From contig URXM01000002.1 in the NCBI GenBank assembly GCA_900551855.1, positions 102,290-166,289 on the forward strand: DNA of 64,000 nt. Direction: 5' to 3'. Within the stretch, counting starts at the first letter, position 1. Each line of letters begins with the position of its first letter. This DNA is from an uncultured Eubacteriales bacterium (GTDB lineage Bacteria; Bacillota; Clostridia; Christensenellales; UBA1242). The notes below the pieces were generated by a model that did no database searches, was not told where the DNA came from, and saw only the letters and a list, made by a program, of their open reading frames with translations. The translations under genes were made by a program, and so were the position numbers. This document shows, piece after piece, positions 22,782 to 64,000 of this stretch.

Positions 22782-22892
22782 TATTTTGTCGAAAAAGGCA
22801 AACAATATTTTAGAGATAATGTTCTTAATTGTTAAATTTGTGTTTGGACTGTTTGCCTAGACTTTATGTCAATTTTAGAAAATGGAGTTTGT

Positions 22893-49797: not shown

Positions 49798-50010
49798 CTA
49801 TTTGCAGTTGCAACCACCACAGTTTGAAAGCAAAATTAAGAACAAGAGAGTTCCGCAGTCAATGCAGATTTCTCCGCCTTTCATTCCGCCAAAACCACAT
49901 CCGCAGTTTTGTAAAAGCAAAAGTAAGAAGATAAGTGAGCAGGTGTCCATTCCGCATCCGCCACATTCTCTACCTACATCGCCACAATTAGAGCCTCCAA
50001 AAAAGTTCAT
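49798..50010 (-). CDS. Small Cys/Gly-rich protein with two hydrophobic helices (internal duplication)
   Basis: RBS: reverse strand AATAGGAGGCACAAATG. The 70-aa product contains two units of [CGxC...C-(S/G)-L-(I/L)-F-L-(L/I)-L-L-x-N-C-G-(C/G)]. Confidence 0.55.
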   Translation of the reverse strand: MNFFGGSNCGDVGRECGGCGMDTCSLIFLLLLLQNCGCGFGGMKGGEICIDCGTLLFLILLSNCGGCNCK

Positions 50011-50263
50011 TTGTGCCTCCTATTAAATTTATCTTTATGTACGACTTTTATGTGCTTTAAGTTTTTGTTGCACATTACAATGTATTAAAATTCATTTAAA
50101 AATGTTAATTATATATAAACTTATTTATGCATATTTTCATAAAAATGGTTGAAAATAAAAAAGAAGGTGGCTTATTGAAAAGTGTGAAAATTTTATCAAA
50201 ATTATCTGACAAAATTTTGGTCATCATGTTAATCTTGTATTGATCTGAAAAAAGGAGGAAAAA

Positions 50264-50824
50264 ATGAAAAGTTTAAGTATGAAAAAAGTAATGTCAATTT
50301 TGGCTTGCATGGTTATGGTTCTTGTGGGAGGAGTTCTTCTTGCTTCTTGCGGTGAAACAAAAACAAACAACGATGTTGTTGCAACTCCAACAGACAAGGT
50401 CGTTGATTTTGGTGGAAGAATAGATTGGAAAAATGCTGAAGATTTGAAACTTACATACCTTGGAGACAACAACTACAAAGCTGAAGGCTCAGCAGCAATT
50501 ATGTCTGCAGAACAAGGAGCTGCTTGGGGCTGTGATGAAGGTTCTATGTATGTTATTCTCAGCATCAAAATGGAAACTGGTGCAACATTAAAAACAGGTT
50601 GGAGAACTTCTGCGGACGAAGAATTTGGTAAAGGAGAAGGAAGCAACAAGGACTATTCTGGAACGGAAGGAGTGAAAGAATTTGTTTTGGGACTTTCTAA
50701 TGGTTCAACACCAACTCACACAGAAAATCCAGTTTGGAGATGTGAAGTTACAAACCCAGTTGAAGAAGGAGAAACTCCAACAACAGTTGTTTTCACAATC
50801 GACTTTTCTGCACTTTATGAATAA
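50264..50824 (+). CDS. Lipoprotein (186 aa)
   Basis: RBS AAAGGAGG. The signal peptide ends with lipobox LLASC|G. Confidence 0.8.
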   Translation: MKSLSMKKVMSILACMVMVLVGGVLLASCGETKTNNDVVATPTDKVVDFGGRIDWKNAEDLKLTYLGDNNYKAEGSAAIMSAEQGAAWGCDEGSMYVILSIKMETGATLKTGWRTSADEEFGKGEGSNKDYSGTEGVKEFVLGLSNGSTPTHTENPVWRCEVTNPVEEGETPTTVVFTIDFSALYE

Positions 50825-50835
50825 AACAAAAATTA

Positions 50836-50868
50836 TAAAAAGTATGTCAATCCGACATACTTTTTTTG
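50836..50868 (+). terminator. Rho-independent terminator
   Basis: AAGTATGTC (50840-50848) pairs with GACATACTT (50854-50862), then a T-run. Confidence 0.7.
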
Positions 50869-50915
50869 TATTATTTGTCCTTTTGTGTTATCATAAAAAT
50901 ATGGAGGAGAATAAG

Positions 50916-52202
50916 ATGAAAAAGATATTATCAATCATGGCTTGTTTCATGTTTGTGCTTGTTGGGGGAATTGCTTTGTCTGCTTGTGGAAATGGGAACA
51001 AAATTACAAAAGAACAACTGATTGATTATTTGTCGGGAGATGGTGTTGTTTCAGAGTTTGATGGCTATGAGTTGAACAGTGTTATTGGGAATATGGAAAT
51101 AAACGCTACAGTTGTTTCAAATGGGGAAACATTGAATGCGAAGATTGTTTATCCTGGTGCACTTCAATCTTCAAGAAATGGAACAATATATATAAAAGAC
51201 AATGTTGTTTATTTTACTACTGCAGAGCATAAATATTATATGGGAATAGATAATTATAACGAAGCGGTAGACAACATAAATGATATCATAAATTATGACG
51301 GCGATTTGACTGACTCTATTATATCTTTTGTCAATGGAGGAATTGATGGAAAGTTGACAATAACCAAGAAATCAAATGGTGAAAATGTCGCTTTCAAATT
51401 AAGTAATACGCTTGAAGTTGGGGAAAATAAAACAATAAGCACTGTTGAGTTGAAATATACAAGCAACAAATTGAAGTCTTTTTCATTGATAACAATCTCT
51501 CATGATGTTGTTATAACAAATATCTCTCTCAATGAATTTGTTGGCAATATTGATTTTCCGGACTTTTCAGATTATGAAGCCTTTTCAAATGTTGAAACGG
51601 TTGATTTGGAAGAAGTAAACAACTATTTAAACAAATTAAACAGCACATGGACTTCTTATGAAGTTTTTGATGGCATTTGTCAAAATGTTAAATATGATGC
51701 AAAAGTCTCTCTTGTTGATGAAAAACTTCAAGTGGAAGTTATAGCAGAAAACGGATTTAAAATCTATTTGAAAGACAATGTAGTTTATTTTGATAATGGA
51801 ACAAAAAAAATCAAGGCGAAATTCAATGGACTCGGGTATTTTGATGTTGATGATGTAAATTTTGGAGAAGCATATGATTTTATTTCAAGTGCCGTAGTTG
51901 TTGAGGATGATGTAAACAGTGTTTTCAATTCTACATTTATAACTGGCGAACTTAAATATGTGGAAGAAATGGTTTCTTCTGGATACTGTAAAGCTAAGAT
52001 TGAGATGAGCAAAGATGCTGATTTGACTACATTTGTGATTTCTTTGTCTTATGGAGATGAGACTTCATCAAGAACACTTATGTTTGATGCAACAAAACTT
52101 TTGGAATATTCTGCAGAAACTGTTGATGGAATAACTTCATTTGTTTATTCAAATGTTGCAATTGAATTCCCAGATCTTTCAGAATATGTTGAAGTTGTTT
52201 AA
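50916..52202 (+). CDS. Lipoprotein (428 aa)
   Basis: ATG at 50916 lies behind GGAGGAG. Signal peptide MKKILSIMACFMFVLVGGIALSAC|G is near-identical in pattern to that of the preceding lipoprotein. The track start at 50682 overlaps the upstream gene and its terminator. Confidence 0.8.
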   Translation: MKKILSIMACFMFVLVGGIALSACGNGNKITKEQLIDYLSGDGVVSEFDGYELNSVIGNMEINATVVSNGETLNAKIVYPGALQSSRNGTIYIKDNVVYFTTAEHKYYMGIDNYNEAVDNINDIINYDGDLTDSIISFVNGGIDGKLTITKKSNGENVAFKLSNTLEVGENKTISTVELKYTSNKLKSFSLITISHDVVITNISLNEFVGNIDFPDFSDYEAFSNVETVDLEEVNNYLNKLNSTWTSYEVFDGICQNVKYDAKVSLVDEKLQVEVIAENGFKIYLKDNVVYFDNGTKKIKAKFNGLGYFDVDDVNFGEAYDFISSAVVVEDDVNSVFNSTFITGELKYVEEMVSSGYCKAKIEMSKDADLTTFVISLSYGDETSSRTLMFDATKLLEYSAETVDGITSFVYSNVAIEFPDLSEYVEVV

Positions 52203-52228
52203 ATTAAAAATAGGATATAAAAAGATTA

Positions 52229-52266
52229 AAAAAGGATAATGCTTGTGGCACTATCCTTTATTTTTT
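52229..52266. terminator. Bidirectional terminator
   Basis: AAAGGATA (52231-52238) pairs with TATCCTTT (52252-52259), flanked by an A-run and a T-run, between convergent genes. Confidence 0.65.
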
Positions 52267-52284
52267 GTTTTTGTGTTTTATAAA

Positions 52285-53076
52285 TTATTTGTTTTTATAT
52301 TTCTTTTTAAATTTTTGTTGGTGTTCCCAAATGGACATAACCATGCTGTGTGGACAGAGTTTAACAAGTGGAAGTTGTGCTTTTGATTTGAAACCATACA
52401 AAACAACTTCTTTGCGTTTGAGAGCTCCTTTCATTGCTCTTTTGATCACTTTTTCAGGTGGATACATTGTGGCGAAGTGGGTGATCACTGCATCTTTTGC
52501 GTTTGTTTTTGTAGCTCTGTCAAAAAATGCTGTTTTTGTCCAATATGGGCAAAGACAAGTCACGCTGATTTTCTTTGATTTAAGCTCTCTGTTCAATGCT
52601 CTTGCATAAGAAAGAACATACGCTTTACTTGCACCATAAACAGACATATAAGGAGTTGGCTGAAACGCTGCCATTGAAGCGATTTCAACAATTCTTCCAC
52701 CTTTTGGCATAAATGGAATTGCTACGAGTGTGAGATGAGTCAAAGCCTTGCAGTTTAGGTCAATCATGCCAAGTTGTGCAGGAATTGAGATTTCATCATA
52801 TCTTCCAAACTTTGCATAACCACTTGCATTGACAAGCCATTCAACTTCTGCTTCTTCTGATTTTAATGCTTCTTCCAATTTTGGGAAGCTTTCATCTTTT
52901 GTCAAGTCTAAATCAAAAAATTTGAAAGGAGTTTTAAGCTCTTTTTTCATATTTTCAACTTCTTCAGTGTAAAGAGCAATTCCCCAAATTTCGTCCAAAC
53001 CGAGTTTGTCAATTTCAAAACAGAAGCGTCTGCCCATTCCTGATGAAGCACCTGTGACTAATGCTATTTTTTTCAT
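52285..53076 (-). CDS. Short-chain dehydrogenase/reductase (SDR) family oxidoreductase
   Basis: TGxxxGxG motif (VTGASSGMGRRF) and catalytic YxxxK (YGASKAY). Confidence 0.9.
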   Translation of the reverse strand: MKKIALVTGASSGMGRRFCFEIDKLGLDEIWGIALYTEEVENMKKELKTPFKFFDLDLTKDESFPKLEEALKSEEAEVEWLVNASGYAKFGRYDEISIPAQLGMIDLNCKALTHLTLVAIPFMPKGGRIVEIASMAAFQPTPYMSVYGASKAYVLSYARALNRELKSKKISVTCLCPYWTKTAFFDRATKTNAKDAVITHFATMYPPEKVIKRAMKGALKRKEVVLYGFKSKAQLPLVKLCPHSMVMSIWEHQQKFKKKYKNK

Positions 53077-53195
53077 TTTTACCCTCCAACAAGTTTCATT
53101 TTTGTTGAGAAACTTGATTTACATTTATATTTTATCATTATTGCCAGAATTTTAGCAAAGAAAATCCATAAAATTCAGTTAATTTCTCTTGTTTG

Positions 53196-53225
53196 TTGAC
53201 TTTTGAAAAATATTCTTGATATAAT
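53196..53225 (+). promoter_or_regulatory. Extended -10 promoter of the ESCRT-like operon
   Basis: TTGACT (53196-53201), 18-nt spacer ending in TGA, TATAAT (53220-53225), about 40 nt upstream of the first ATG. Confidence 0.6.
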
Positions 53226-53266
53226 CAATATGAATAATTATATCTTATAGATTAGAAGGGGATTAA

Positions 53267-54109
53267 ATGGAGCAAAACATTATCACTTTTACAGGAAACA
53301 ATCAAAAATTGTTGTCAAGATATATAATTGAAAAACTTGATCCAAAATTGACACTTATTGTGCCTGAAACTCACAATGCAATTTTGATTAAAGATGGTCA
53401 AATGCTTCAAACCTTATCTTCTGGAAAATATTTAATCAGCAAATTTGTTGATTTGAAAACAGAAGCAGATTCTGCACTTGAAATTTTGTTTATGTCAAAA
53501 ACAGCAAAACTTAAACTGCTTTGGGGAACTCCACAAAAACTTATTATGTATGACAACTTGTTGCAAGAAAATTATCGAGTTGGCATGAGCGGAGATTTTG
53601 AAGTCCAGGTAGGCGATCCAAGAAAATGCTTCTTATACCTTGTAGGAGCTTCCGAAGATTTGACTTCTGATGCTCTTCAAGACAGATTGATGTCAAATGT
53701 TGTTTCGGTGCTCGAAACAGTTGTTGTAGATTATGTAGAAACAAACAAAGTGTTGTTTAATCAAATTTCTCTTTGCAAAAAAGAGATTGCTTCAAAAGTT
53801 TTGAGCAAGTTGAGCCAAAAACTGATGAACGAATATGGTATTGCGGTTTTTTCTTTCAATATTGCAAACATTATTATTGATGATGAAGACAGAGAAAAGT
53901 TGGAGAAAGAATACAAACAATTAAAGAAGACAGAAGACTTTATCTGCAGAAATTGTGGAGCGGTGCTAAAAGAAAACGACAAGTTCTGTTCTGTTTGTGG
54001 GAAGAAAGTTGAGATATCCAAAAAATGTCCAAAGTGCTTTGCAGAGAATGCCGATGATGCAAAGTTCTGCTCAAGTTGTGGAGCAAAACTGTCAAATGAG
54101 GAGGAGTAA
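53267..54109 (+). CDS. SPFH/Band-7 (YdjI-like) protein with a C-terminal double zinc ribbon
   Basis: RBS AGAAGGGG. The body follows the YdjI-type SPFH pattern (...LIVPETHNAILIKDGQ..., LLWGTPQKL, YRVGMSGDFEVQVGDP, EYGIAVFSFNIANI). The tail has CRNC..CSVC and CPKC..CSSC. Confidence 0.75.
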   Translation: MEQNIITFTGNNQKLLSRYIIEKLDPKLTLIVPETHNAILIKDGQMLQTLSSGKYLISKFVDLKTEADSALEILFMSKTAKLKLLWGTPQKLIMYDNLLQENYRVGMSGDFEVQVGDPRKCFLYLVGASEDLTSDALQDRLMSNVVSVLETVVVDYVETNKVLFNQISLCKKEIASKVLSKLSQKLMNEYGIAVFSFNIANIIIDDEDREKLEKEYKQLKKTEDFICRNCGAVLKENDKFCSVCGKKVEISKKCPKCFAENADDAKFCSSCGAKLSNEEE

Positions 54110-54511
54110 ATGATAGCAGTTTATATTATAATTTTGTTGGCTGTTGTTGGACTTGCAGTGTTTTACATTTGCAGAGAATACATCAAAAAACCAGAAAATG
54201 AAGAAGGAAGTCGTGGAGTTGTAAAAAACAAAAAAAATATTGAAAAAATGGTGGCAAATGTTGAAAGCATACTTGTTTATGCAAACGGCAATGACGAGTT
54301 GTGCAATCGTTTAGTTGAAGTAAAAGACAACATCAGATTTTTCAATCCTACAACAAATCCAAAAGTTTTGTTGACAGATACAAAAATTGCAAACAAACTT
54401 GATGACTTGAAAATTATGGTTGCAAAAGACAACACACAAGAAACTTGCTTTAGAGTTTTGGAAGAGATTGAAGCATACATTGTTCAAAGAAAAAAGGATG
54501 AAATTGACTAA
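54110..54511 (+). CDS. Small N-terminally membrane-anchored helical protein
   Basis: The ATG abuts the upstream stop (TAAATG). One TM (IAVYIIILLAVVGLAVFYI) is followed by about 105 aa of charged, helical sequence. Confidence 0.6.
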   Translation: MIAVYIIILLAVVGLAVFYICREYIKKPENEEGSRGVVKNKKNIEKMVANVESILVYANGNDELCNRLVEVKDNIRFFNPTTNPKVLLTDTKIANKLDDLKIMVAKDNTQETCFRVLEEIEAYIVQRKKDEID

Positions 54512-54870
54512 TGAAAAGAACTTATCAAACTTCTGCTGATTTGCCAGAAAGCGAACAGGTGAAAACTTTGAACGAACTTAAACTTGGCTATTTGAATTTG
54601 AGCGACGGAATGTTTGAACAAGCAAAAGTCAACTTTCTTCTTGCTCTTCAATATGACAGCAAATGTGCAGATGCTTATTGGGGATTGATGCTTGTCAAGT
54701 TTCAAATAAAAAATGAAGACGAGTTATATTCCAATCCAAATACATATAAAAGTGCGGTTTATCTTCCAGAATATGAAAAAGCAATTGAATATGCTGAAGA
54801 AAATCAAAGAAAAAAATATGAAGATTTGTTGGACAGAATCTATAAGATCAACGAAGGAGACAATTATTGA
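54511..54870 (+). CDS. Small TPR-like helical protein
   Basis: The start overlaps the upstream stop (TAATG). The segment FEQAKVNFLLALQYDSKCADAYWGLMLVKFQIKNEDEL resembles a TPR unit and recurs in the 1273-aa protein of the same operon. Confidence 0.55.
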   Translation: MKRTYQTSADLPESEQVKTLNELKLGYLNLSDGMFEQAKVNFLLALQYDSKCADAYWGLMLVKFQIKNEDELYSNPNTYKSAVYLPEYEKAIEYAEENQRKKYEDLLDRIYKINEGDNY

Positions 54871-54902
54871 TTTTTTGAAATCAATATGCAAAAGGAGCAA
54901 AT

Positions 54903-55517
54903 ATGTGGTGGCCATTTAGAAGAAACAAATTTAAAAATTTGAATAGAGAGGATCTTGTCAATTCTATTTGCGAACTTGAAAGACAAGAACGCACTGCCGA
55001 AGCAGAAGTTTATCAAAAGATAAAAGAGATTGATGCTTTGGTTGATAAAGGCAAGAAAGAGAAAAACAGAGAGTTGCAACTTTTCTATGCAAAGAAAATC
55101 AGTCATCTCAATGAAGAAAAGCAAACTTGTATGGAAAGAGGAATGTATTTGTTGTATAACATCAGGCTTATGAACAAACTTAAAGATGCATACGACAGCA
55201 ACACATTTTTCAAGACTCAAACAAAAGTGCCTTTAAGTGAATTGTTGCAAGACCAAAAGAGATTGGCAAAGTTTTTGAATAAAGCACTTGAAACAAGAAT
55301 TTCTTCCGAAGACGTTTTGACAAGTGCGGACGAACTTTTCAACGAAGTTCAATCTGCTTATGATGTAAGTCAACCAATTTATGGAGTTGGAAAAAACGAA
55401 GAAGAAATTTTGAGTATGTTTGAAAAAGAAAATCAGTTAAACGATGAGCAAGAACTCATGGAAGACAAAGAAAAGTCAGAACCAATAAAAAAGAAAAAGA
55501 TGAAGATGGAGGAATAA
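54903..55517 (+). CDS. ESCRT-III superfamily protein, Snf7/CHMP4-like (tentative)
   Basis: RBS AAAAGGAG. A 204-aa all-helical protein whose core IKEIDALVDKGKKEKNRELQLFYAKKISHLNEEKQTCMERGMYLLYNIRLMNKLKD parallels the CHMP4 alpha1-alpha2 hairpin. The C-terminus is acidic. Confidence 0.6.
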   Translation: MWWPFRRNKFKNLNREDLVNSICELERQERTAEAEVYQKIKEIDALVDKGKKEKNRELQLFYAKKISHLNEEKQTCMERGMYLLYNIRLMNKLKDAYDSNTFFKTQTKVPLSELLQDQKRLAKFLNKALETRISSEDVLTSADELFNEVQSAYDVSQPIYGVGKNEEEILSMFEKENQLNDEQELMEDKEKSEPIKKKKMKMEE

Positions 55518-55520
55518 AAA

Positions 55521-56126
55521 ATGGCTTGGTTTAAATCTAAACAACAAAAAGAAATCGAAAAGAAGATGTTGATTAAAAGAACAATCAACTCAATGAACAA
55601 ACAGATCAATCGTTTGGAAGATCAAAAACAAGTGTTTATTGATGCTGCAAAGAGAGCAAAACTTAAAGGGCTTGATGCACAATTCAATTTGGCTTTGAGC
55701 GGTTATAAAATGACTGTTCAACAACAAAAGAGAGCACAAGAGATGCTTTTAAACTTTGAAATCACTGCACAAATGAAAGATGTCACAATGATGACTTCAG
55801 AGTTTTTGCGTGGAATGAGTGACATAAGCAAGGAAATGACAAAACTTGCAGATGCAAAAGAATTTGCCAAGATTCAAGCTCAATTTGAAGAAGCTATGGC
55901 TGCCGTTGAAACTCAAACAGATCAAATGGACAACTTTATGGAAATGAGTCAAGAAACTTTCTACAATCAAGGTGTTGACAAGAGTGGAAAGCAAATGTCT
56001 GATGAAGAACTTGAAAAGTTTATTATGGAACAAGCTTCTCAAGACGAATTGTCAAGCGAAAACATTGACAAAGAGATGGAAGAAGTTAGAAAGAAAATCG
56101 AATCTGAAACATCAAGCAAAGAATAA
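55521..56126 (+). CDS. ESCRT-III superfamily protein, CHMP2/Vps24-like (tentative)
   Basis: RBS GGAGG. N-terminal MAWFKSK... (compare MxLFGK in CHMPs). INRLEDQKQVFIDAAKRAKLKGLDAQ parallels LDRERQKLExQEKKIIADIKKMAKQGQMDA. MKDVTMMTSEFLRGMSDISKEM parallels MKGVTKAMGTMNRQM. The N-terminal half is basic and the C-terminal half acidic. Confidence 0.7.
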   Translation: MAWFKSKQQKEIEKKMLIKRTINSMNKQINRLEDQKQVFIDAAKRAKLKGLDAQFNLALSGYKMTVQQQKRAQEMLLNFEITAQMKDVTMMTSEFLRGMSDISKEMTKLADAKEFAKIQAQFEEAMAAVETQTDQMDNFMEMSQETFYNQGVDKSGKQMSDEELEKFIMEQASQDELSSENIDKEMEEVRKKIESETSSKE

Positions 56127-56158
56127 TTTTCAATTAGTTTTATATAGGGGTTTTATCC

Positions 56159-57301
56159 ATGGAAGAGACAAACATAAATGTGCTTTCTGACACTTTTAAT
56201 CTTTATATGAAAAAAGGCAAAGAAGCAAAAGAAAAAGGGAATATTACACTTGCAAAGCGAAATTTTTTGCTTGCTAGCGAAACAATGATGCAAATGGCAA
56301 AACAAAGCACTGGCAAACTCAAAGAAGTTCGTATGGATAGAGCACGCCGTCTTGTTGAGATTTCTGACAATTTAAACAAAAAACCTGCAAAGATAAACAA
56401 GAAAGATGAAAAAACAGAAGATGAAGAAGACGAAGATGTAAAAAAATGGCAAGCCGCAGAGATCCCTAAGATAAAATTTAGTGATGTTGCTGGGCTGGAA
56501 GATGTCAAAAAAGCAATCACTATAAGAATGATAAATCCTATCAAATATCCAGACAAATACAAAATGTATGGCAAAAAGACAGGCGGAGGAGTCTTGTTGT
56601 ATGGACCTCCAGGAACTGGTAAAACAATGATTGCCAAAGCGATTGCAAATGAAGTTGGGGCAAAATTTTATGCTGTTAAGGGCTCTGATATTGTCAGTAA
56701 ATGGGTTGGTGACAGTGAGAAAAACATAAATTCACTTTTCCAAGAAGCCAACAAACAAGACAGAGCAATCATCTTTATTGATGAAATGGACAGCCTTATT
56801 GGCAGGCGTGGACTTGACACTCACAATGACAAGAGAGTAAATGAATTTTTGCAACAAATTGATGGTTTTGCAGGAAGAAATCCAAACTTACTTTTGCTTG
56901 GTGCAACAAACAGACCTTGGGATATTGACAGTGCCGCAATGCGTTCGGGCAGATTTTCACAGAAGATTTATTTGCCTTTGCCAGATGCACCAGCAAGAAA
57001 ATTTATGATTGAAAAAAATATGAAAGGTGTTCCTGTTGCAAAAGATTTTGATGTGGACAAAATAGTCGCACAAACCGAGATGTATAGTGGGGCAGACATT
57101 GAAGAACTTTGTGACAGAGCAAAAGATGAGCCTCTTTTGAAAGCTATTGCAACAGATAGCATTATATTGGTAACCAACAAAGATTTTGATGATGTGCTTG
57201 AAAAAATGCCACCTAGTGTGACACCAAAAGAGTTGAAACAATTTGAAGAATACAACAACGAAATCAATGGTTACATAAAAAACAAAAAAGCAAAAAAATA
57301 A
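56159..57301 (+). CDS. Vps4/CdvC-like AAA+ ATPase (MIT-like N-domain plus a single AAA cassette)
   Basis: The N-terminal ~70 aa match the three-helix MIT pattern (KKGKEAKEKGNITLAKRNFLLASETMMQMAK...RMDRARRLVEISDNL), followed by an acidic linker. Motifs: FSDVAGLEDVKKAI, Walker A GPPGTGKT, SKWVGDSEK, Walker B IIFIDEMD, SRH ATNRPWDIDSAAMRSGRF. The C-terminal helix is PSVTPKELKQFEEY. Confidence 0.85.
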   Translation: MEETNINVLSDTFNLYMKKGKEAKEKGNITLAKRNFLLASETMMQMAKQSTGKLKEVRMDRARRLVEISDNLNKKPAKINKKDEKTEDEEDEDVKKWQAAEIPKIKFSDVAGLEDVKKAITIRMINPIKYPDKYKMYGKKTGGGVLLYGPPGTGKTMIAKAIANEVGAKFYAVKGSDIVSKWVGDSEKNINSLFQEANKQDRAIIFIDEMDSLIGRRGLDTHNDKRVNEFLQQIDGFAGRNPNLLLLGATNRPWDIDSAAMRSGRFSQKIYLPLPDAPARKFMIEKNMKGVPVAKDFDVDKIVAQTEMYSGADIEELCDRAKDEPLLKAIATDSIILVTNKDFDDVLEKMPPSVTPKELKQFEEYNNEINGYIKNKKAKK

Positions 57302-57311
57302 GGGTTTTTAA

Positions 57312-60300
57312 GTGAGAGAGCGTGTTTGTAAAAATTGTGGAGGGAGAAAATATAAAGTTGTTGGGCAGAACATGGTTAAATGTATGTTCTGTGGAACTCT
57401 CTATGTAGACGAACAGGCTTCCAAGGAAGAAGAAGTCCTTACAGTCAGAGCTTATGACAAACTTAGAGAATGCAAGTTTGACGAAGCTGTTGATGAATTT
57501 GACAAGATCTTGTCTTTATATCCAATGTCTTTTGAAGGAAGATATGGAAAAGTTTTAGCAAAAAATAAAATCATTCTTTACACAAACAAAAGAGGAGTTT
57601 CAAAAAGACCTCGTTTTTTTGGCGAAGAAATACCTTCAATTTTGGAAGAGGAAGACTTTAAAGAAGCAGTAAAAAATGCACCTCCAGAAATGGCAAAAAC
57701 ATATACGGACCAAGCCAAGAGAATTGAAAAAATAAGAAAAAATTATTTGGAAGAGACAAGCAAAGACAAATATGATGTTTTTGCTTGTGCCTTAGATTTT
57801 GATAAAGAAGACGAAAATAGTGTCGTAGCAAAAGCATTGGAAGAATTGAAAAACGAAGGTCTTGCTGTTTATTTTGTTCAAGGACTTGATCATAGAGAAA
57901 GAGAGGAAGATTCTTTCCAAGCATTGAAAACAGCAAAAGTGTTTTTACTTTTTGCAAACGATGAAAAAAATTTCAACAATGGGGAAATAAAGAATTTTTA
58001 CGACAGATACTTATATTTTATCTCTCAAAGAAAAAAGACAAAAAGCAGTTTTATCATTGCGCTAGACAGCGAGAAAATTTCTGCTTCAGAATTGCCAAAA
58101 GAATTGACCACATTTAAAAATGTTGTGGATATAAACCAAATTTCTTTTTTACAAGATTTGAAAGTAATCGTAAAAAAAGAAATGGAAAATTCTATTGATG
58201 AAGTTGCGAAAATAGACACAGTTAAAATTGAAAAAGTCGAGCCAGAGAAAAAAGCATATGTTGACATTGAAAGCATAAATCCAAGTGAGCTTGGACATTA
58301 TCATGTTGAAAATGTTGAACTTAGTGATGCAAACAAAATCAAATGGATTTTCTTGACGCTGAAGAATGGTGATTTTGCTTCGGCGACAGACTTGATTGAA
58401 AAGGGTTTGGAAAAAGATCCATACAATTCGGAACTTATGTTTGCACAGCTTATGGCCGAAAACAACATCAAAACTCAAGAAGAGTTTTTCTTGAATATTG
58501 CAAACTTTAGGGACAAAGAAAAAATTGACAAACTGCTCACTTATGCTTCAAAAGATTTTGCAGAATATTTTGTTGACAGTTGGGAAAAACTTGTTGAGAG
58601 ACTTGATAGTGAGGAATATTACAACGCATTTTTACTTTATTTGGCAAAGTATACATCACCAAACAGAAATAACTTTATTGAAAAAGCAGAAAACAAGGCT
58701 GTTGAAACATTAAATGAAGAACTGATTGACAAAGTTTTGAAGTGTTTTAAAAGTGATGAAGTTGATAGATTTGTTCAATTTTACTTTATGCTTGCACAAA
58801 AAAGTGATGATCAAAAATATTATCAAAAAATTTTGGACATTGATGCTGGACACGAACAAAGCAATATTGCTGTTTTGTTGCAACATTTCAAGACTGAAGA
58901 AGATTTGCTAAACTATCGAAACAAAGAAGAAATAGAAAATTCATTTAAATATTTAAGTGAAAATTCAAGGACAAGATTTGTTTCTTCTTTGATAAATATG
59001 ATTTTGCCAATTGCGTTTTATGATTTATCAAAGGCAGAAGAACAGTTGGATTTCTATTTGTCATATGTTGCCGATGATCAAGAGCTTGCAAAGATACTTC
59101 AACAAATTGCGAGCGTTTTTCAAGAGCAAGGATTTTTTAAACAAGCAGAAAAATATATTTCTATTGCTATTTCAAAGGATAATTCAAACAGCGAATTATA
59201 TTGGCAACTTATAGAAATCAAAGCTCATTGCAAAACCGACAATGAGATCATTATGTCAAATGTAAAGGTTTCTCAAATGCCAGAATGGGAAACATTGCTT
59301 AGTCTGTCAGATGAAAAACAAACAGAAAAGTATGCTGAAATCACAAGCAAAGCAAATTTATATTCTGGAGAAAAAATCCCATTTAAAATGGATTTGCCTG
59401 ACAAGGTTAATTTGATACAAGAGATACAAGATTTTGTTAATAGAAACGAAAAGATTTTGTTGGAGATAGAAAACCAAGAAGGGGACAAAGTCTTAAAAGG
59501 AATAAAATATTATAGCCTTCAACTTCAGCCTTTTGAAAAATATATTGAAGATATAAAAGGTATAAAAGACTTTAAAGATTATCAAGATATTTATTCAAAA
59601 ATCAATTCAAGACTAGAAGCCTTAAATTTGACATTGTTGACATCTGTAAATGTTATTGATTTGTTGAATAAGAGCGAAGGTCTTGTTGCAGTTTTTCAAG
59701 ATTCAAAACCAAAAATCACTAAAAAATCAAAACAAAAAGACATAAGAGACATAAAGAAAGATAAGTTTATTAAAAAGTTTTTATACATATTTTTGGAGCT
59801 ATTCCCAATCTTGTTTACAACTTTGCTTTTGGTGGTTTTGCTTGTCAATCCAAAAGAAGTTTACTTGTATTTCAGTCAAGAATTTTTGATAGTTTCTATG
59901 ATTTTTTCAACTTTGATAGGAATGATAAATCTTGTTGTTTTTATCAATATTAGGCACAAAGTTTCAAAGAAATGGAATATCGCAAACAGTATTCTGTTTT
60001 GTGTTGCCGGAATAAACATCATATTGATGTTGGCAGGACTTTATCTTTTCCCAGTGACAATGCAAATCAACAATGCAAAAGAAATGAGAGTGTTGCTCAA
60101 GAATGCCTCTTATTCAAATTTTGAATTGACAACGGACATTGATATGAGTGATAAGTCTTGGCAATCATTCAATTTTAGTGGATCATTAAATGGAAATGGA
60201 CACTCACTTACAAATTTAAAATTTGACAACAAAGATGGCAAGATTGGTTTGTTTAAAAGAAACAGTGGAGATATTAAAAATTTACAAATCTATTTGGCAG

Positions 60301-61133
60301 ATGAACAATATTCAAATATAAACAGATTTGGACCTATTGCAAGGTCAAATTATGGAGCAATTGAAAACTGTGTTGTTTATGGGACAATTGAATTAAACAT
60401 AAATGAAAATGCTGTTGTTGGAGGAGTAAGTGCCTCTATGGAAGGCGGAACAATTTTAAATTGTGAAACTTATTTGACAATAACAATAAATGTTGAAGAT
60501 GCAAATCTTACTTATGGTGGAATTGTTGGAGAAGTGAGAACAAGCCAAGGTGAGACAATTATATCTAAATCAACGAACAACAGCAATGTGATGATAAATG
60601 CTAACAATGCTCAGACAATCAGCGCTGGTGGATTTGTGGGGATTTTAAGACATTTGGACAAAGATGACTTTGATTTCTCTATAAATGCAAGCAATTCAAA
60701 TTTGCAAGTTTCTGGAAATGGGCAAGAAGTGATTGCTGGTGGTCTTGTAGGTCAAGGATACAGCAGCAGTGAAAACAATTATTCGACAGGGCTTATTGAT
60801 TTGTCTGAATTTGTTGGAAGTGGCTATGTTGGTGGACTTTATGGTGAGTATGAAAACACATCACTTCTTGATAGTATAAAAACAAGTTATTCTCTTGTTT
60901 CACTTGATGTAAACGATCAAGTTAAGGTCGGCGGACTTGTTGGAAGCCTTGGGGGAAAAATTGTTTATTGTTTCTCAAATGTCGTAGACAAAGATTTGGT
61001 TGGAGATACAAGATTTTCTTCTGCAGGAGCAGATAATTGCAAGCAATTATCAAACAAATTTTATGATGAGAGTTTGAATTTTGACGAAAATGTATGGGTG
61101 ATAACTGATACGGCTTATCCAATTTTCAAATAA
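57312..61133 (+). CDS. 1273-aa modular membrane protein: Zn ribbon, TPR-like repeats, TIR-like module, more helical repeats, three TMs and an extracellular GLUG-repeat domain
   Basis: GTG start 7 nt after AAGGG. Zn ribbon CKNCGG...CMFCG. YDVFACA...AVYFV...VFLLFAN...SFIIAL (nt ~57771-58120) has a TIR/flavodoxin-like beta-alpha pattern. Three hydrophobic helices lie at nt ~59763-60060. About eight (V/A/Y)GG(L/I/F/V)VG-type GLUG repeats follow, ending in VWVITDTAYPIFK. Confidence 0.75.
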   Translation: MRERVCKNCGGRKYKVVGQNMVKCMFCGTLYVDEQASKEEEVLTVRAYDKLRECKFDEAVDEFDKILSLYPMSFEGRYGKVLAKNKIILYTNKRGVSKRPRFFGEEIPSILEEEDFKEAVKNAPPEMAKTYTDQAKRIEKIRKNYLEETSKDKYDVFACALDFDKEDENSVVAKALEELKNEGLAVYFVQGLDHREREEDSFQALKTAKVFLLFANDEKNFNNGEIKNFYDRYLYFISQRKKTKSSFIIALDSEKISASELPKELTTFKNVVDINQISFLQDLKVIVKKEMENSIDEVAKIDTVKIEKVEPEKKAYVDIESINPSELGHYHVENVELSDANKIKWIFLTLKNGDFASATDLIEKGLEKDPYNSELMFAQLMAENNIKTQEEFFLNIANFRDKEKIDKLLTYASKDFAEYFVDSWEKLVERLDSEEYYNAFLLYLAKYTSPNRNNFIEKAENKAVETLNEELIDKVLKCFKSDEVDRFVQFYFMLAQKSDDQKYYQKILDIDAGHEQSNIAVLLQHFKTEEDLLNYRNKEEIENSFKYLSENSRTRFVSSLINMILPIAFYDLSKAEEQLDFYLSYVADDQELAKILQQIASVFQEQGFFKQAEKYISIAISKDNSNSELYWQLIEIKAHCKTDNEIIMSNVKVSQMPEWETLLSLSDEKQTEKYAEITSKANLYSGEKIPFKMDLPDKVNLIQEIQDFVNRNEKILLEIENQEGDKVLKGIKYYSLQLQPFEKYIEDIKGIKDFKDYQDIYSKINSRLEALNLTLLTSVNVIDLLNKSEGLVAVFQDSKPKITKKSKQKDIRDIKKDKFIKKFLYIFLELFPILFTTLLLVVLLVNPKEVYLYFSQEFLIVSMIFSTLIGMINLVVFINIRHKVSKKWNIANSILFCVAGINIILMLAGLYLFPVTMQINNAKEMRVLLKNASYSNFELTTDIDMSDKSWQSFNFSGSLNGNGHSLTNLKFDNKDGKIGLFKRNSGDIKNLQIYLADEQYSNINRFGPIARSNYGAIENCVVYGTIELNINENAVVGGVSASMEGGTILNCETYLTITINVEDANLTYGGIVGEVRTSQGETIISKSTNNSNVMINANNAQTISAGGFVGILRHLDKDDFDFSINASNSNLQVSGNGQEVIAGGLVGQGYSSSENNYSTGLIDLSEFVGSGYVGGLYGEYENTSLLDSIKTSYSLVSLDVNDQVKVGGLVGSLGGKIVYCFSNVVDKDLVGDTRFSSAGADNCKQLSNKFYDESLNFDENVWVITDTAYPIFK

Positions 61134-61135
61134 AA

Positions 61136-61175
61136 ACAAAAGTGATACTTAAAAAATATCACTTTTTCTTTTTTG
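61136..61175 (+). terminator. Rho-independent terminator closing the operon
   Basis: AGTGATA (61141-61147) pairs with TATCACT (61157-61163), then a T-run. Confidence 0.7.
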
Positions 61176-61184
61176 CAAAATTAG

Positions 61185-61229
61185 TTGACATTTTTTTGTG
61201 AAAAGAATATAAATAGTTAGTATGCTAAC
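61185..61229 (+). promoter_or_regulatory. Promoter with a candidate MarR operator palindrome
   Basis: TTGACA (61185-61190), 17-nt spacer, TATAAA (61208-61213). Inverted repeat GTTAG (61216-61220) / CTAAC (61225-61229) lies at the expected transcription start. Confidence 0.55.
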
Positions 61230-61246
61230 AATCGGAGGGAAAAGTC

Positions 61247-61675
61247 GTGTTTTCAATTGTTTTATCTTTAAAATCATTAAACCATGCCATTATGCGAAGA
61301 TTTGAAAAAGAGTTAAAAAACTTTGATATCACTGGTGGTCAATTTATGATTTTGAAATATCTTTTTGACCATCAAAAAGAAGATGTTTATCAAAAAGATA
61401 TAGAAAAATTTATAAGTGTTAGAGGTTCAACCGCAACAGTTGTCTTGCAGACTTTAGAGAAAAAAGGTTATCTTGAAAGAATTGTAAACTTAAATGATGG
61501 TAGGTTAAAAAAGATCATTCTTTGTGATAAAGCTAAGAAAATGGTTGAAGATATACAAAACAGAATGATAAAACTTGAAAAGAAAATTGAAAATGGATTA
61601 TCCGAAGAAGAAAAAAAATGTTTTTCTTCTGTTGTTGAGAAAATAAAGAATAATATACAAAATCAAGAGGAATAA
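61247..61675 (+). CDS. MarR-family transcriptional regulator
   Basis: GTG start behind GGAGGG. Winged-helix pattern (ITGGQFMILKYL..., DIEKFISVRGSTATVVLQTLEKKGYLER, NDGRLKKI). Confidence 0.85.
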   Translation: MFSIVLSLKSLNHAIMRRFEKELKNFDITGGQFMILKYLFDHQKEDVYQKDIEKFISVRGSTATVVLQTLEKKGYLERIVNLNDGRLKKIILCDKAKKMVEDIQNRMIKLEKKIENGLSEEEKKCFSSVVEKIKNNIQNQEE

Positions 61676-61682
61676 ATCAATT

Positions 61683-63428
61683 ATGAATATTTTGAGATTA
61701 TTGAAAAATTTGAAATGGATAGATTATTTGTTTTTGTGCATTGCTTGTGGACTTATTGTTTTGCAAGTATGGCTTGATCTTGAATTGCCTTCTTACACAG
61801 AGAACATTATGAATGAATTAGGAAAGCTTCCTATGGGAGAAAAAGTTGAAATGTCCGTTATTTTGATAAATGGCGGATATATGCTTGCTTGTGCTTTGGG
61901 AAGTCTTTCTAGTGCTATTTTGGTAGGATTTTTTACAGCAAATTTATCTTCTAGACTTGCTTACAATATTAGAGGAAAAGTTTACAACAAAATTCAAGGT
62001 TTTTCTCTTGCAGAAATAAACAAATTTTCTACAGCAAGTTTGATAACAAGAACAACCAATGATGTCACACAAGTACAAATTTTCCTTGCAATGGGTATGC
62101 AAGCAATCATTAAAGCTCCTGTTCTTGCCATTTGGTCAATCATAAAGATTTTAGGCAAAGACTGGCAATGGTCTGTTGCACTCGCTGTTGCAATTGGTTT
62201 TTTGCTTTTGATGGTAATTGTGATTATCACTGTTGCTGTTCCAAAATTTAAGAAAATTCAAACTATGACAGACGATATCAACCGCGTCACTGATGAAAAC
62301 CTTACTGGTATTAGGGTTGTTCGTGCTTCAAATGCGGAAGATTTCCAAAATGAAAAATTTGAGAAATACAATCAGAAACTTACAAAAACTCAACTTTTTG
62401 TAAACAGAGTTATGGGGATTATGAACCCTGGTATGACTCTTTTGATGAGTGGTCTTTCTCTTGCAATTTATTGGATTGGTGCATATATTGTTGAAGATAG
62501 AATGATGCTTGCAAATATGACAACATTTATGCAATATGGAATCCAAGTTGTAGCTGCATTTATGCTTTTGATCATTATATTTATCTTAATGCCAAGAGCT
62601 CTCGTTTCTGCAAAGAGAATAAACGAAGTTTTAGATACAAAAGACTCTATTATTTCTGGAGAATTTAAAGATATAAATTCAAACCGTTCTGCATCTGTTA
62701 TTTTTGACCATGTTTCTTTCAAATATCCTGACGCCGATGAATATGTTTTGAAAGATATAAGTTTTGAAGCAAAAGAGGGAGAAATTGTTGCCTTTATTGG
62801 TTCTACAGGAAGTGGAAAGAGCACTCTTATCAATCTTATCCCTAGATTGTATGATGCAACAGAAGGGAAAGTTTTGATTGATGGTGTTGATGTAAAAGAA
62901 TATGACCTTGAAAGTTTAAACAGAAAGATAGGATATGTGCCACAGAGAGGAATTCTTTTCAGTGGAACTGTTAAATCAAATGTAAACTTTGGAGATAACA
63001 ATGCTGATGATGAAGAAGTTAAAAATGCAATAAGTATTGCTCAGGCATCAAACTTTGTTTCTAGAATGGCAAATGGTGTTGATAGTAGAATTGCTCAAGG
63101 AGGAACAAATGTTTCTGGTGGGCAGAAACAGAGATTGTCAATTGCTCGTGCTGTAGCTAGAAGACCAGAAATCTTTATTTTTGATGATAGTTTTTCTGCA
63201 CTTGATTATAAAACAGACAAGAAATTGAGAGCTGCTCTCAAAAAACACACAGGAAAAGTCACAAAGTTTATTGTTGCACAAAGAATTGGAACAATTAAAG
63301 ATGCTGACAAAATTATTGTTCTTGACAATGGAATCATGGTTGGTATGGGGACACACGATGAGTTGCTCAAGAATTGTCCAGTTTACAAAGAAATAGCTTT
63401 GTCACAATTGTCAAAGGAGGAATTATAA
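61683..63428 (+). CDS. ABC exporter, fused permease/ATPase (multidrug type), subunit 1
   Basis: Six-TM N-terminal domain, Walker A GSTGSGKST, signature VSGGQKQRLSIARA, Walker B IFIFDDSFSALD. Confidence 0.92.
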   Translation: MNILRLLKNLKWIDYLFLCIACGLIVLQVWLDLELPSYTENIMNELGKLPMGEKVEMSVILINGGYMLACALGSLSSAILVGFFTANLSSRLAYNIRGKVYNKIQGFSLAEINKFSTASLITRTTNDVTQVQIFLAMGMQAIIKAPVLAIWSIIKILGKDWQWSVALAVAIGFLLLMVIVIITVAVPKFKKIQTMTDDINRVTDENLTGIRVVRASNAEDFQNEKFEKYNQKLTKTQLFVNRVMGIMNPGMTLLMSGLSLAIYWIGAYIVEDRMMLANMTTFMQYGIQVVAAFMLLIIIFILMPRALVSAKRINEVLDTKDSIISGEFKDINSNRSASVIFDHVSFKYPDADEYVLKDISFEAKEGEIVAFIGSTGSGKSTLINLIPRLYDATEGKVLIDGVDVKEYDLESLNRKIGYVPQRGILFSGTVKSNVNFGDNNADDEEVKNAISIAQASNFVSRMANGVDSRIAQGGTNVSGGQKQRLSIARAVARRPEIFIFDDSFSALDYKTDKKLRAALKKHTGKVTKFIVAQRIGTIKDADKIIVLDNGIMVGMGTHDELLKNCPVYKEIALSQLSKEEL

Positions 63429-63429
63429 A

Positions 63430-64000
63430 ATGCCTGGTATGATGAATATGAGAAACAATTCAGTTGAAAAAGCAGAAAAAGGTGCATTTTTTAAGTCTTT
63501 AGGCAAGCTCCTTAAATTTTGTAAAAGATATTGGGGATGGATAATTTTGTCTATTGTTTTGGGAGCGGTTGCAACCGTATTTCAAATTATAGGTCCAAAC
63601 AAAATTGGAGATATTGCAAGTATTATTTCTAAAAGTTATATGTTTGGCATTGATGTTGGTGCCGTTACAGAAATTGCAATTTTCTTGGTTTGCATTTATG
63701 TTGCAGGAGCAATTTTGTCTTATTTCCAACATTTTATAACAGCGACAGTCACACAAAAAACTGTAAGAAGATTGAGACAAAATATTTCTAAAAAAATCAA
63801 CAAATTACCTTTAAATTATTTTGATACTCATCTTCACGGAGACATTTTAAGTAGAGTCACAAACGATATTGATACGATTGGTCAGAACTTAAACCAAAGT
63901 ATAGGTGGGCTTATTTCAAACATTTTGTTGTTTTTAGGCGTGCTTGTAGCTATGTTTGTAATTGACTGGATTATGGCATTTACTGTTGTGGGAACTACAA
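63430..64000 (+). CDS. ABC exporter, fused permease/ATPase, subunit 2 (partial; continues beyond the window)
   Basis: ATG at 63430 lies behind AGGAGG, 1 nt after the upstream stop. The TM-domain sequence is typical of type I exporters (...LRQNISKKINKLPLNYFDTHLHGDILSRVTNDIDTI...). Confidence 0.88.
   Translation, partial: MPGMMNMRNNSVEKAEKGAFFKSLGKLLKFCKRYWGWIILSIVLGAVATVFQIIGPNKIGDIASIISKSYMFGIDVGAVTEIAIFLVCIYVAGAILSYFQHFITATVTQKTVRRLRQNISKKINKLPLNYFDTHLHGDILSRVTNDIDTIGQNLNQSIGGLISNILLFLGVLVAMFVIDWIMAFTVVGTT

Follow-up and report, generated by a model that had tools for sequence, protein, structure and literature searches.

A seven-gene operon of uncultured gut Christensenellales that combines Snf7-like and MIT-AAA-like proteins with SPFH and membrane-anchored partners

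According to reviews and surveys, the ESCRT-III relatives of bacteria are only of the PspA/Vipp1 type, and the pairing of Snf7 with Vps4 is confined to archaea and eukaryotes. Here we describe an operon of seven genes, g1 to g7, from an uncultured bacterium of the Christensenellales (UBA1242), in which the gene for a Snf7-like protein (g5) stands next to that for an AAA ATPase with a MIT-like domain (g6), together with genes for an SPFH protein (g1) and for membrane-anchored partners (g2 and g7). The operon lies in a stretch of 64,000 nucleotides (contig URXM01000002.1, positions 102,290 to 166,289 of the forward strand), which we call the window and to which all positions given without a further label refer. 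An earlier note, made from this sequence alone, had read the locus as a bacterial ESCRT-III/Vps4-like system, and this core interpretation is supported by our analysis. No description of the operon was found in the full-text literature, most subscription journals being outside the collection that was searched. We regard it as a bacterial ESCRT-III/AAA operon with a distinctive accessory set, and we consider it likely that it encodes an ATP-driven, ESCRT-III-type membrane-remodelling module with its own ATPase.

Among the closest described systems are the archaeal CdvB-CdvC loci, especially those of the euryarchaeal 'Meth_adaptin' type (Makarova et al. 2024, PMC10936438), in which an SPFH protein carrying a coiled coil and a zinc ribbon also occurs (PMC10936438). 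The operon shares with Meth_adaptin loci a Snf7-family gene directly upstream of the gene for an ATPase with MIT and a single AAA cassette, at least two ESCRT-III-like genes, an SPFH protein that carries zinc ribbons, and a zinc-ribbon protein that is joined via transmembrane (TM) segments to an extracytoplasmic domain. Unlike the archaeal loci, it is found in a bacterial host, and its ATPase stays far under the equivalog cutoff for CdvC (209 versus 650 bits) and gets a higher score from the Cdc48 model. Furthermore, no winged-helix (ESCRT-II/CdvA-like) or adaptin-appendage proteins were detected in the operon, whose accessories are instead a TPR protein, a degenerate TIR module and a GLUG-like surface domain.

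In Bacillus subtilis, the SPFH protein YdjI recruits PspA to the membrane and is required for its localisation, according to PMC8581546 as cited in PMC10936438, and the architecture given for YdjI is 'Band-7+ZnR' (Table S3 of PMC11237479), ZnR denoting a zinc ribbon. As in the pspA-ydjGHI operon, a Band_7_1 SPFH protein with a zinc ribbon is here encoded beside an ESCRT-III-superfamily gene and small membrane proteins, and by analogy, an SPFH protein that recruits the polymer to the membrane would be the likely shared logic. Unlike in pspA-ydjGHI, the polymer protein appears to be of the Snf7 type and not PspA_IM30 (PF04012), a Pfam family that none of the seven operon products matches. Also, the operon has a dedicated MIT-AAA ATPase, which pspA-ydjGHI is without, and it carries no equivalent of the TPM-domain protein YdjH but a giant protein that combines a zinc ribbon, TPR, a TIR-like part, TM segments and GLUG-like repeats.

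With respect to bacterial ATPases of this kind, Ravi et al. 2024 (PMC11237479) reported MIT+Vps4-like ATPases with TPR+TM proteins, e.g., ACB74714.1 of Opitutus, in contexts where 'snf7 is displaced by ... TPRs and a 6TM domain', as well as a SIG+TM+Snf7 protein with PspA, an ABC transporter and a two-domain AAA protein (OGG56892.1). Common to these contexts and to the operon are bacterial MIT-AAA ATPases, Snf7-clade proteins beside AAA ATPases, and TPR-containing membrane partners. However, the Vps4-like gene in those contexts either has no Snf7 partner, or a Snf7 protein with signal peptide and TM segment accompanies an inactive-plus-active double AAA, whereas in the operon, a single-cassette MIT-AAA protein and SPFH are the direct partners of a soluble Snf7-type protein that ends in a MIM-like tail. 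The table of Ravi et al. 2024 (PMC11237479) holds no context like that of g1 to g7.

The evidence that carries our reading begins with g5. An exhaustive HMMER search yielded 327 clusters of g5 relatives at the 50%-identity level, and a family profile was made from 64 full-length relatives. In the PDB, this profile found human CHMP2A (7zcg_B) at E=3.2e-6, with positions 13-143 aligned to 10-143, that is, over the whole ESCRT-III core; Heimdallarchaeal ESCRT-IIIB was matched weakly, and no PspA or Vipp1 chain appeared even at E<=10. When the 64 relatives were scanned singly against Pfam, ten of them matched Snf7 (best 4.2e-6), none matched PspA_IM30, and no other family recurred. One Snf7-like fusion among the relatives attains the gathering score of Pfam Snf7. 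The g5 protein itself begins with MAWFKSK (family consensus MxxFKSK), a putative membrane-insertion motif, and its two halves carry opposite net charges, +9 (N-terminal) and -15 (C-terminal). By its family profile, g5 is thus assigned to the Snf7/CHMP branch of the ESCRT-III superfamily, and not to PspA.

An AlphaFold model of g5, made from a shallow alignment, has helices at residues 7-48, 52-85, 90-106, 112-150, 161-174 and 179-198, an order compatible with the hairpin and shorter helices of ESCRT-III. Since the model is of low confidence, we have used its list of Foldseek matches qualitatively: 24 of the top 31 belong to the ESCRT-III superfamily, but the best E-value is only 0.023, and the list includes CHMP1B, Vipp1, CdvB, CHMP2A/3, Snf7, Shrub, PspA and Asgard ESCRT-IIIB. 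Weak structural matches to PspA and Vipp1 are to be expected among members of one superfamily. The last of the helices is conserved and predicted to be amphipathic, and it follows a poorly conserved acidic linker. The spacing Phi-x3-Phi-x2-Phi-[KR][KR], which we take to be the MIM1 consensus of CHMP1 and CHMP2, occurs at the C-terminus of 16 of the 64 relatives, as compared to 0.78 expected from shuffled tails, and from this pattern the helix reads as a MIM1-like motif.

The product of g6 is recognized in Pfam as AAA (3.3e-42) with AAA_lid_3 and Vps4_C, the latter at 24.2 bits with a cutoff of 21.3. Its motifs are Walker A (GPPGTGKT at 149), the pore loop (KWVG at 181), Walker B (IIFIDE at 204) and RSGR at 262, and the sensor-1 region ATNRP and the RxGR arginines are intact. 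The KWVG pore loop (KWxG) is presumably the Vps4 form. The NCBIfam model of CdvC aligns with g6 from end to end (residues 10-368 against 8-367 of 370), though its 209 bits are far under the equivalog cutoff of 650. For the N-terminus, a profile of the first 90 residues from 24 orthologues had the MIT domain 2mpk as its best match in the PDB (E=0.0034), followed by five MIT structures of VPS4A/VPS4B at E 0.23-0.8, which aligned over all three helices, and Pfam MIT was found in five of the 24 orthologues (best 1.6e-4). Judged by its sequence, g6 has the architecture of Vps4, in that a MIT-like domain is followed by one intact AAA cassette and by a Vps4_C-type helix. It is an architectural and probably a functional analogue of Vps4/CdvC.

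As a single sequence, g4 found nothing in Pfam, NCBIfam or the PDB. The first alignment was too shallow (Neff, the effective number of sequences, 1.4) and was rebuilt from the orthologues in the loci described below and from a further database search; 29 diverse orthologues and their profile had no relevant match in Pfam or the PDB, PspA_IM30 included. With hhalign, g4 was collinear with the g5 family over 163 columns, from the N-terminal motif to helix 5, in a weak match (E=0.032, probability 1.6%), and when 7,734 sequences of a local database were searched, the profiles of g4 and g5 matched each other's families at sub-threshold level only. The N-terminus of the protein, MWWPFRRNKFK, is aromatic and basic, and the tail is acidic. 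A charge count bore out that g4 and g5 both have a basic N-terminal and an acidic C-terminal half. In an AlphaFold (AF2) model from a 40-sequence alignment (mean predicted local distance difference test score, pLDDT, 68.5), a hairpin of helices 15-52 and 56-98 (pLDDT ~90) is followed by helices 111-128, 138-159 and 166-192. The top Foldseek TM scores of this model (0.42-0.48) are those of CdvB2 filaments (prob up to 0.98), CHMP2A/3 and Asgard ESCRT-IIIB, and these ESCRT-III structures stand among generic helical bundles.

On this evidence, g4 would be a probable, though by no means secure, second ESCRT-III-like subunit. The suggestion of the earlier note that g4 and g5 are a Snf7-type pair rather than PspA therefore stands for g5, for which the CHMP2A match and the lack of PspA_IM30 in its family speak, but not for g4, where a significant sequence link is missing. 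The finer assignment of the two to Snf7/CHMP4 and CHMP2/Vps24 is unproven, the likeness of g4 being structural only.

The arrangement of these genes recurs in many genomes. One genome from each GTDB species was scanned with a pattern derived from 13 closer g5 sequences, and a g5 relative was found encoded in 145 genomes. We examined 80 loci from them, all of which are from Christensenellales-type gut metagenome-assembled genomes (MAGs), the carriers being Ca. Caccovivens, Ca. Coproplasma, 'Christensenella sp.' and similar; near-identical proteins also carry the names Candidatus Caccovivens and related 'Clostridia bacterium' gut MAGs. According to BLAST of the seven window proteins against all open reading frames (ORFs) of the 80 loci, all seven genes are present in the same order in ~55 species-level loci, with 74-96% identity in g5. 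A further ~25 loci, which are more distant (57-66% identity in g5), retain the core g1-(g2)-g4-g5-g6; in these, g3 is absent, and the g7-like proteins are shorter, moved or replaced. Within the seven-gene tier, the most conserved genes are g4, g5 and g6, with 74-97% identity; g1 and g7 go down to 48% and 34%, respectively. The Snf7-like gene is immediately 5' of the AAA gene in most Christensenellales loci, and one or a few genes lie between the two in about a dozen. The recurring gene order is no chance arrangement, and the operon is under strong purifying selection. The earlier note had said that its reading would fall if the gene association were absent elsewhere; the association is found in these two tiers of loci as well as in the other lineages described below.

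Individual loci (designated by L numbers) show variations on this arrangement. L005 (10629-11525), as well as L007 and L009, all of them from very close relatives, has a gene for a protein of 298 amino acids (aa) between g5 and g6, an insertion that is absent from the window, and the product of the L005 insert resembles phosphatases of the Ppx/GppA family with actin fold (6pc0 at E=2e-6). Smaller gaps between g5 and g6 are seen in L012, L036 and L037. In Ca. Coproplasma-type genomes, a ~570-aa protein composed of zinc ribbon, TPR and an intact TIR_2 domain is encoded, along with more genes, between the Snf7-like and AAA genes (L063, L068, L069, L073, L076, L077, L080, L082, L083), and the giant g7 is absent downstream. 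L062 has its insertion between g4 and g5 instead, which are ~2.8 kb apart. Among the more distant Christensenellales loci, the g6 orthologues of L061, L062, L064, L066, L071, L072, L074, L078 and L079 carry a low-complexity linker and an extra C-terminal domain of ~110 aa with the conserved motif ...KPxxEF...Y.C....W.SE.L...G.Y...I....GI.E.D (e.g., L061:10581-12137), which the window g6 is without.

A wider family is seen on contigs of other uncultured organisms, where distant g5 relatives (24-36% identity) are again encoded directly 5' of a g6-like AAA gene (L085, L089, L091, L093, L094, L095), and neighbours of such distant AAA genes match Pfam Snf7 along their full length. In L094 (542-5729), the Snf7-like gene (Pfam Snf7 1.5e-4) precedes an AAA gene whose product matches Vps4_C at 25.4 bits, and L091 (1085-2582) and L092 have the order HTH_17, Snf7-like gene, AAA gene. 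L089 (5051-15871), L093 (6909-17803) and L095 (9001-20263) encode a Band_7_1 SPFH protein, a ~345-aa protein, the Snf7-like protein, the AAA protein and a large variable protein, in this order. L085 (8001-17668) probably has the same order, the product of its first gene (259 aa) being without a Pfam match. The large variable protein of such loci belongs to LRR_5 or DUF6273 or is unassigned, and the ~345-aa protein was considered as a homologue of g4 and rejected for want of detectable homology. Genes for YbjN-like, trypsin-like protease, WG_beta_rep, SNF2 helicase and Ser/Thr kinase proteins are often near these distant operons.

In the same distant lineages, another Snf7-like domain is fused N-terminally to other ATPases (L085:8001-9668, L089:6093-7886, L093:8001-9863, L095:9001-11403). 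In one kind of fusion, it precedes FtsK_alpha and an FtsK/SpoIIIE motor, and there is no TM domain (proteins P0294, P0305, P0314, P0297, P0325); in the other, it precedes a RuvB-like AAA domain and a winged helix, to which a NERD nuclease and a zinc ribbon may be added (P0288, P0352, P0299, P0310, P0389). The occurrence of a Snf7-like domain in place of the FtsK membrane anchor suggests a possible link between membrane necks and DNA handling.

Of the accessory proteins, g1 was confirmed as the YdjI-like SPFH/Band-7 protein with two zinc ribbons that it had been taken for: it matches Band_7_1 (7.5e-14), Zn_Ribbon_1 (1.3e-14) and DZR (5.4e-13) in Pfam and has four CxxC motifs at residues 227-271. 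It has no TM segment and is hence soluble, and it is syntenic in at least 75 loci. By hydropathy, g2 has a single TM segment at residues 1-26, in agreement with its description as membrane-anchored, and its position after g1 is conserved. We also observed that the g4 profile weakly matches the cytoplasmic helical part of g2 orthologues (e.g., L043:3138-3542; best E=2.6e-4 in the 7,734-sequence database) and that the g5-family profile touches some g2 orthologues at E ~0.5. Thus, g2 might be a TM-anchored, truncated ESCRT-III-like relative, or the signal might be merely compositional. For g3, the TPR matches that had been claimed are present, but weak (E 0.04-0.06; PilW TPR 9.7e-4). It matches the ZnR-TPR-TIR proteins of L064 and L070 in BLAST and is therefore homologous to the TPR unit of g7-type proteins, and it is found only in the Caccovivens-type clade.

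The giant protein g7 starts in the cytoplasm with a four-cysteine zinc ribbon (C6, C9, C24, C27) and TPR (Pfam TPR_14, TPR_2), has a TIR-like part at residues ~153-290, a long helical/TPR region in its middle, and three TM segments at ~822-917 with a lysine-rich stretch before them, and ends in an extracellular part (residues ~925-1273) with six GG[LIVF]xG motifs ~35 aa apart. Of what the earlier note had seen in it, the zinc ribbon, TPR and three TM segments hold for the window protein directly, and the assignment of TIR and GLUG draws on orthologues: g7 of the window has no Pfam TIR match at E<=1 and no Pfam Glug match, whereas among 26 orthologues and relatives, eight match TIR_2 at the position of window residues 153-290 (best 1.3e-10, above the cutoff) and five match Glug (PF07581) in the C-terminal region (best 1.4e-7, above the cutoff). 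The TIR motifs 'DIFISY' and 'RNEW' of the relatives read 'DVFACA' and 'KNFY' in the window clade. The change from 'RNEW' to 'KNFY' loses the catalytic Glu, and the TIR of the window g7 is therefore degenerate; the module is probably a non-catalytic scaffold. In a comparison of 17 g7 orthologues, the mean identity is 68% in the ZnR-TPR part versus 38% in the extracellular part, which is the fastest-evolving.

The Snf7-type g5, the MIT-AAA g6, the SPFH protein g1 and the membrane-anchored partners are inherited together, and from this we infer a working mechanism. We propose that g5, probably co-polymerising with g4, would assemble on the cytoplasmic face of the membrane, at a site set by g1, by the membrane anchor g2 and by the cytoplasmic ZnR/TPR/TIR-like scaffold of g7. 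A hexamer of g6 would dock on the C-terminal helices through its MIT domain (MIT-MIM contacts) and thread the subunits through its pore, such that ATP would drive polymer turnover, by which the membrane could be repaired, constricted or cut. Outside the cell, the fast-evolving GLUG-like domain of g7 would tie this process to a place or condition at the cell surface.

For the role of such a module, the most conservative reading is envelope repair or stress, which we put forward tentatively and with some doubt. Division, abscission or vesicle formation, with FtsK fusions in relatives as a hint that DNA might be cleared at membrane necks, seems rather unlikely, and no more likely is a function in conflict or phage defence, as suggested by the intact TIR of relatives, by their nuclease, protease and helicase neighbours, and by the fast-evolving surface domain. 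The picture of an envelope-stress module in which PspA has been replaced is a guess from gene content. It is a real possibility, if not yet a likely one, that bacteria own a genuine ESCRT-III and Vps4-like machine for ATP-driven constriction or scission (abscission, vesicle release, wound excision), with the operon as one member of a wider radiation. The coupling between Snf7 and ATPase would then be brought about by adjacency, as with MIT-AAA, and by fusion, as with FtsK-type translocases and RuvB-NERD.

Several observations weigh against an ATP-driven ESCRT-III-type module. The window g5 has no match in Pfam (E<=1), NCBIfam or the PDB when used as a single sequence, and its placement as Snf7 rests on the family profile; the confidence of its model is low (pLDDT 52.6). 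There is no significant sequence link between g4 and ESCRT-III, and the Foldseek E-values of its model are all >0.1. The support for the MIT domain of g6 is weak to moderate, with 0.0034 as the best E-value in the PDB. Over its full length, g6 scores 222 bits with the CDC48 model of NCBIfam versus 209 with CdvC, and its AAA part alone scores 222.9 with CDC48, 203 with CdvC, 197.7 with FtsH and 191.9 with PAN. The top PDB matches of its lid and C-terminal helix are p97-D2, katanin, Afg2, VAT and fidgetin-like 1, with no Vps4 among the top 60, and its second region of homology reads RSGRF, which we take to be the Cdc48/PAN type rather than the RRRF type of Vps4. Lastly, relatives have TIR domains and lie near genes for nucleases, proteases and helicases, which suggests a possible conflict role.

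We have judged the membership of g6 in the Vps4/CdvC clade by model ranking, and the rankings for the AAA part and for the lid with the C-terminal helix both favour Cdc48-type proteins, so that g6 as a Vps4/CdvC orthologue was rejected on this measure. Hence, of the earlier assignment as Vps4/CdvC-type, the MIT-like domain, the single AAA cassette and Vps4_C are retained, but not the clade membership. The AAA cassette, lid and C-terminal helix are nearest to p97 D2 (199 bits), then to katanin, Afg2 and VAT. Unlike Cdc48, p97 and VAT, g6 has one cassette, no Cdc48 N-domain, a MIT-like N-terminus and the KWVG pore loop. In this context, Vps4 itself has been inferred to have arisen from Cdc48 (Makarova et al. 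2024, PMC10936438), and therefore both transfer with divergence and an independent origin of g6 are possible. By origin, g6 may be an orthologue, a relative acquired by transfer, or an invention made independently from Cdc48, and with its combination of MIT and a Cdc48-like ATPase, it could stand for a path to a 'Vps4' that was taken independently or that branched off early.

Some of these points can be read differently. In the operon, ESCRT-like parts might make up a system for conflict (anti-phage or abortive infection) or for the sensing of danger, which is compatible with the mechanism proposed above and differs mainly in role. Here, g7 or the SPFH/ESCRT-III layer would sense envelope damage or phage, and TIR, nuclease or protease effectors, or membrane sealing, would respond. 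Distant g7-type proteins do have a bona fide TIR_2 with the conserved Glu motif, but the TIR of the window clade is without the catalytic Glu. The extracellular domain of g7 evolves fastest and is replaced in other lineages by LRR_5, DUF6273 or WG_beta_rep proteins, and the Snf7-like fusions to a RuvB-like AAA domain and NERD nuclease, with genes for trypsin-like protease and SNF2 helicase near, would also suit such a system. The g6 protein resembles the defence ATPase IetA/IteA at 112-134 bits, yet this generic AAA similarity is weaker than that to Cdc48, CdvC, PAN and FtsH. No system of PADLOC-DB 2.0 was matched, g6 alone having matches, through generic AAA similarity to IetA, TRIP13 and DolB, and the six other products none, and a known defence system was rejected. 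The same housekeeping flanks across many species, the uniform GC content and the highly conserved core are unlike typical patchy defence islands, and no relatives were found in viral contigs. We consider a conflict system unlikely.

More improbable is a passive envelope-stress shield, in which g4 and g5 would coat damaged membrane like PspA/LiaH with a YdjI-type SPFH protein, and the AAA protein would be a regulator or a Cdc48-type unfoldase, with no scission. The context of an SPFH protein, zinc ribbon and small TM protein mirrors that of B. subtilis pspA-ydjGHI (Table S3 of PMC11237479), the AAA domain of g6 is nearest to the Cdc48 model and not to CdvC, and bacterial PspA systems employ non-Vps4 ATPases, e.g., PspF. 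However, g5 is assigned to the Snf7 and not the PspA type, and g6 is without a sigma-54 or DNA-binding module and has a MIT-like domain, with a MIM1-like helix in g5. MIT and MIM are the recruitment elements for disassembly in archaea and eukaryotes, and the AAA gene strictly adjoins the Snf7-like gene across distant lineages. That the resemblance is superficial altogether, g4 and g5 being generic charged coiled coils with no ESCRT-related function, would fit the failure of both single sequences to match anything in Pfam or the PDB and the weak Foldseek E-values of both models. We think this very improbable, as the g5 profile aligns with CHMP2A over the entire core, multiple relatives match Pfam Snf7 end to end, most of the top Foldseek matches of g5 are in the ESCRT-III superfamily, and the linkage to a MIT-AAA ATPase is conserved. 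The earlier note had named generic coiled coils as the outcome that would undo its reading, and for g5 both the profile and Foldseek point to the ESCRT-III superfamily instead.

The region 53196-61175 of the window contains the seven genes as tightly packed ORFs on the + strand, which span 53267-61133 (Table 1). Their positions and the TAAATG (54107-54112, g1/g2) and TAATG (54509-54513, g2/g3) junctions proved to be as first described. The remaining intergenic gaps from g3 to g7 are 32, 3, 32 and 10 nt, each of them with a purine-rich run resembling a ribosome-binding site. The GTG start of g7 is supported by its orthologues, whose N-termini read MRERVCKNCGG. A single promoter and terminator had been proposed to bracket the operon, and both were found: the promoter agrees with the consensus at 11 of 12 positions and is the top match in the 14 kb that were scanned (50000-64000), and the terminator stem (61138-61166, 10 bp) with its U run has a folding energy of -7.7 kcal/mol (z = -3.1 compared to shuffles). 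A consensus terminator scan missed this hairpin because its stem is poor in G-C pairs.

Table 1. Features of the operon, with positions in the 64-kb window
Feature	Position	Strand	Description
Promoter, sigma-70 type	53196..53225	+	TTGACT-18 nt-TATAAT, extended -10 TG; 41 nt 5' of g1
g1	53267..54109	+	280 aa; SPFH (Band_7_1, YdjI type) and two C-terminal zinc ribbons
g2	54110..54511	+	133 aa; one N-terminal TM segment, cytoplasmic helical tail
g3	54511..54870	+	119 aa; TPR-like
g4	54903..55517	+	204 aa; ESCRT-III-like helical protein, homology unproven
g5	55521..56126	+	201 aa; assigned to Snf7-family ESCRT-III proteins, closest match CHMP2A
g5 C-terminal amphipathic helix (predicted), MIM1-like	56055..56114	+	residues 179-198, IDKEMEEVRKKI
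g6	56159..57301	+	380 aa; AAA+ ATPase, single classical AAA cassette and C-terminal helix
g6 MIT-like three-helix domain	56159..56383	+	residues ~1-75
g7	57312..61133	+	1273 aa; giant multidomain membrane protein; GTG start
Intrinsic terminator	61138..61174	+	10-bp hairpin, then U run

The GC content is 0.30-0.34 and uniform over the 64-kb window, and exact copies of g5 in several metagenomes keep the same flanks, with an SDR gene upstream and MarR and ABC-transporter genes downstream. Uniform GC and the same flanks in relatives indicate a resident locus and no island, and the cluster belongs to the chromosome of Christensenellales-type gut Clostridia, in which it is inherited vertically as an operon. 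No relatives were found in viral contigs, and together with the uniform GC and the conserved flanks, this led us to reject an origin from a phage or mobile element. Elsewhere in the window, an ORF of 4140 aa (22866-35288, +) matches no Pfam family at E<=1e-4 and is directly followed by the gene for a PLD-type, cardiolipin-synthase-like protein with two PLDc_2 domains (35322-36770, +). Upstream of the operon lie two adjacent genes for putative lipoproteins (50264-50824 and 50916-52202, +), whose signal-peptide-like N-termini end in ...SCG or ...ACG; they occupy the same position in L001-L004, and neither matches a Pfam family.

The operon would extend the paradigm of ATP-driven ESCRT systems to bacteria. 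It would also bear on the origin of the partnership between ESCRT-III and Vps4, which could lie in transfer from archaea, in convergence from Cdc48-like ATPases or in deep ancestry. The system is compact enough for reconstitution, and that Snf7-like domains occur fused to FtsK motors raises the testable idea that DNA clearance is linked to membrane abscission. Since the carriers are abundant gut Christensenellales, the function of the operon may matter for the physiology of gut microbes.

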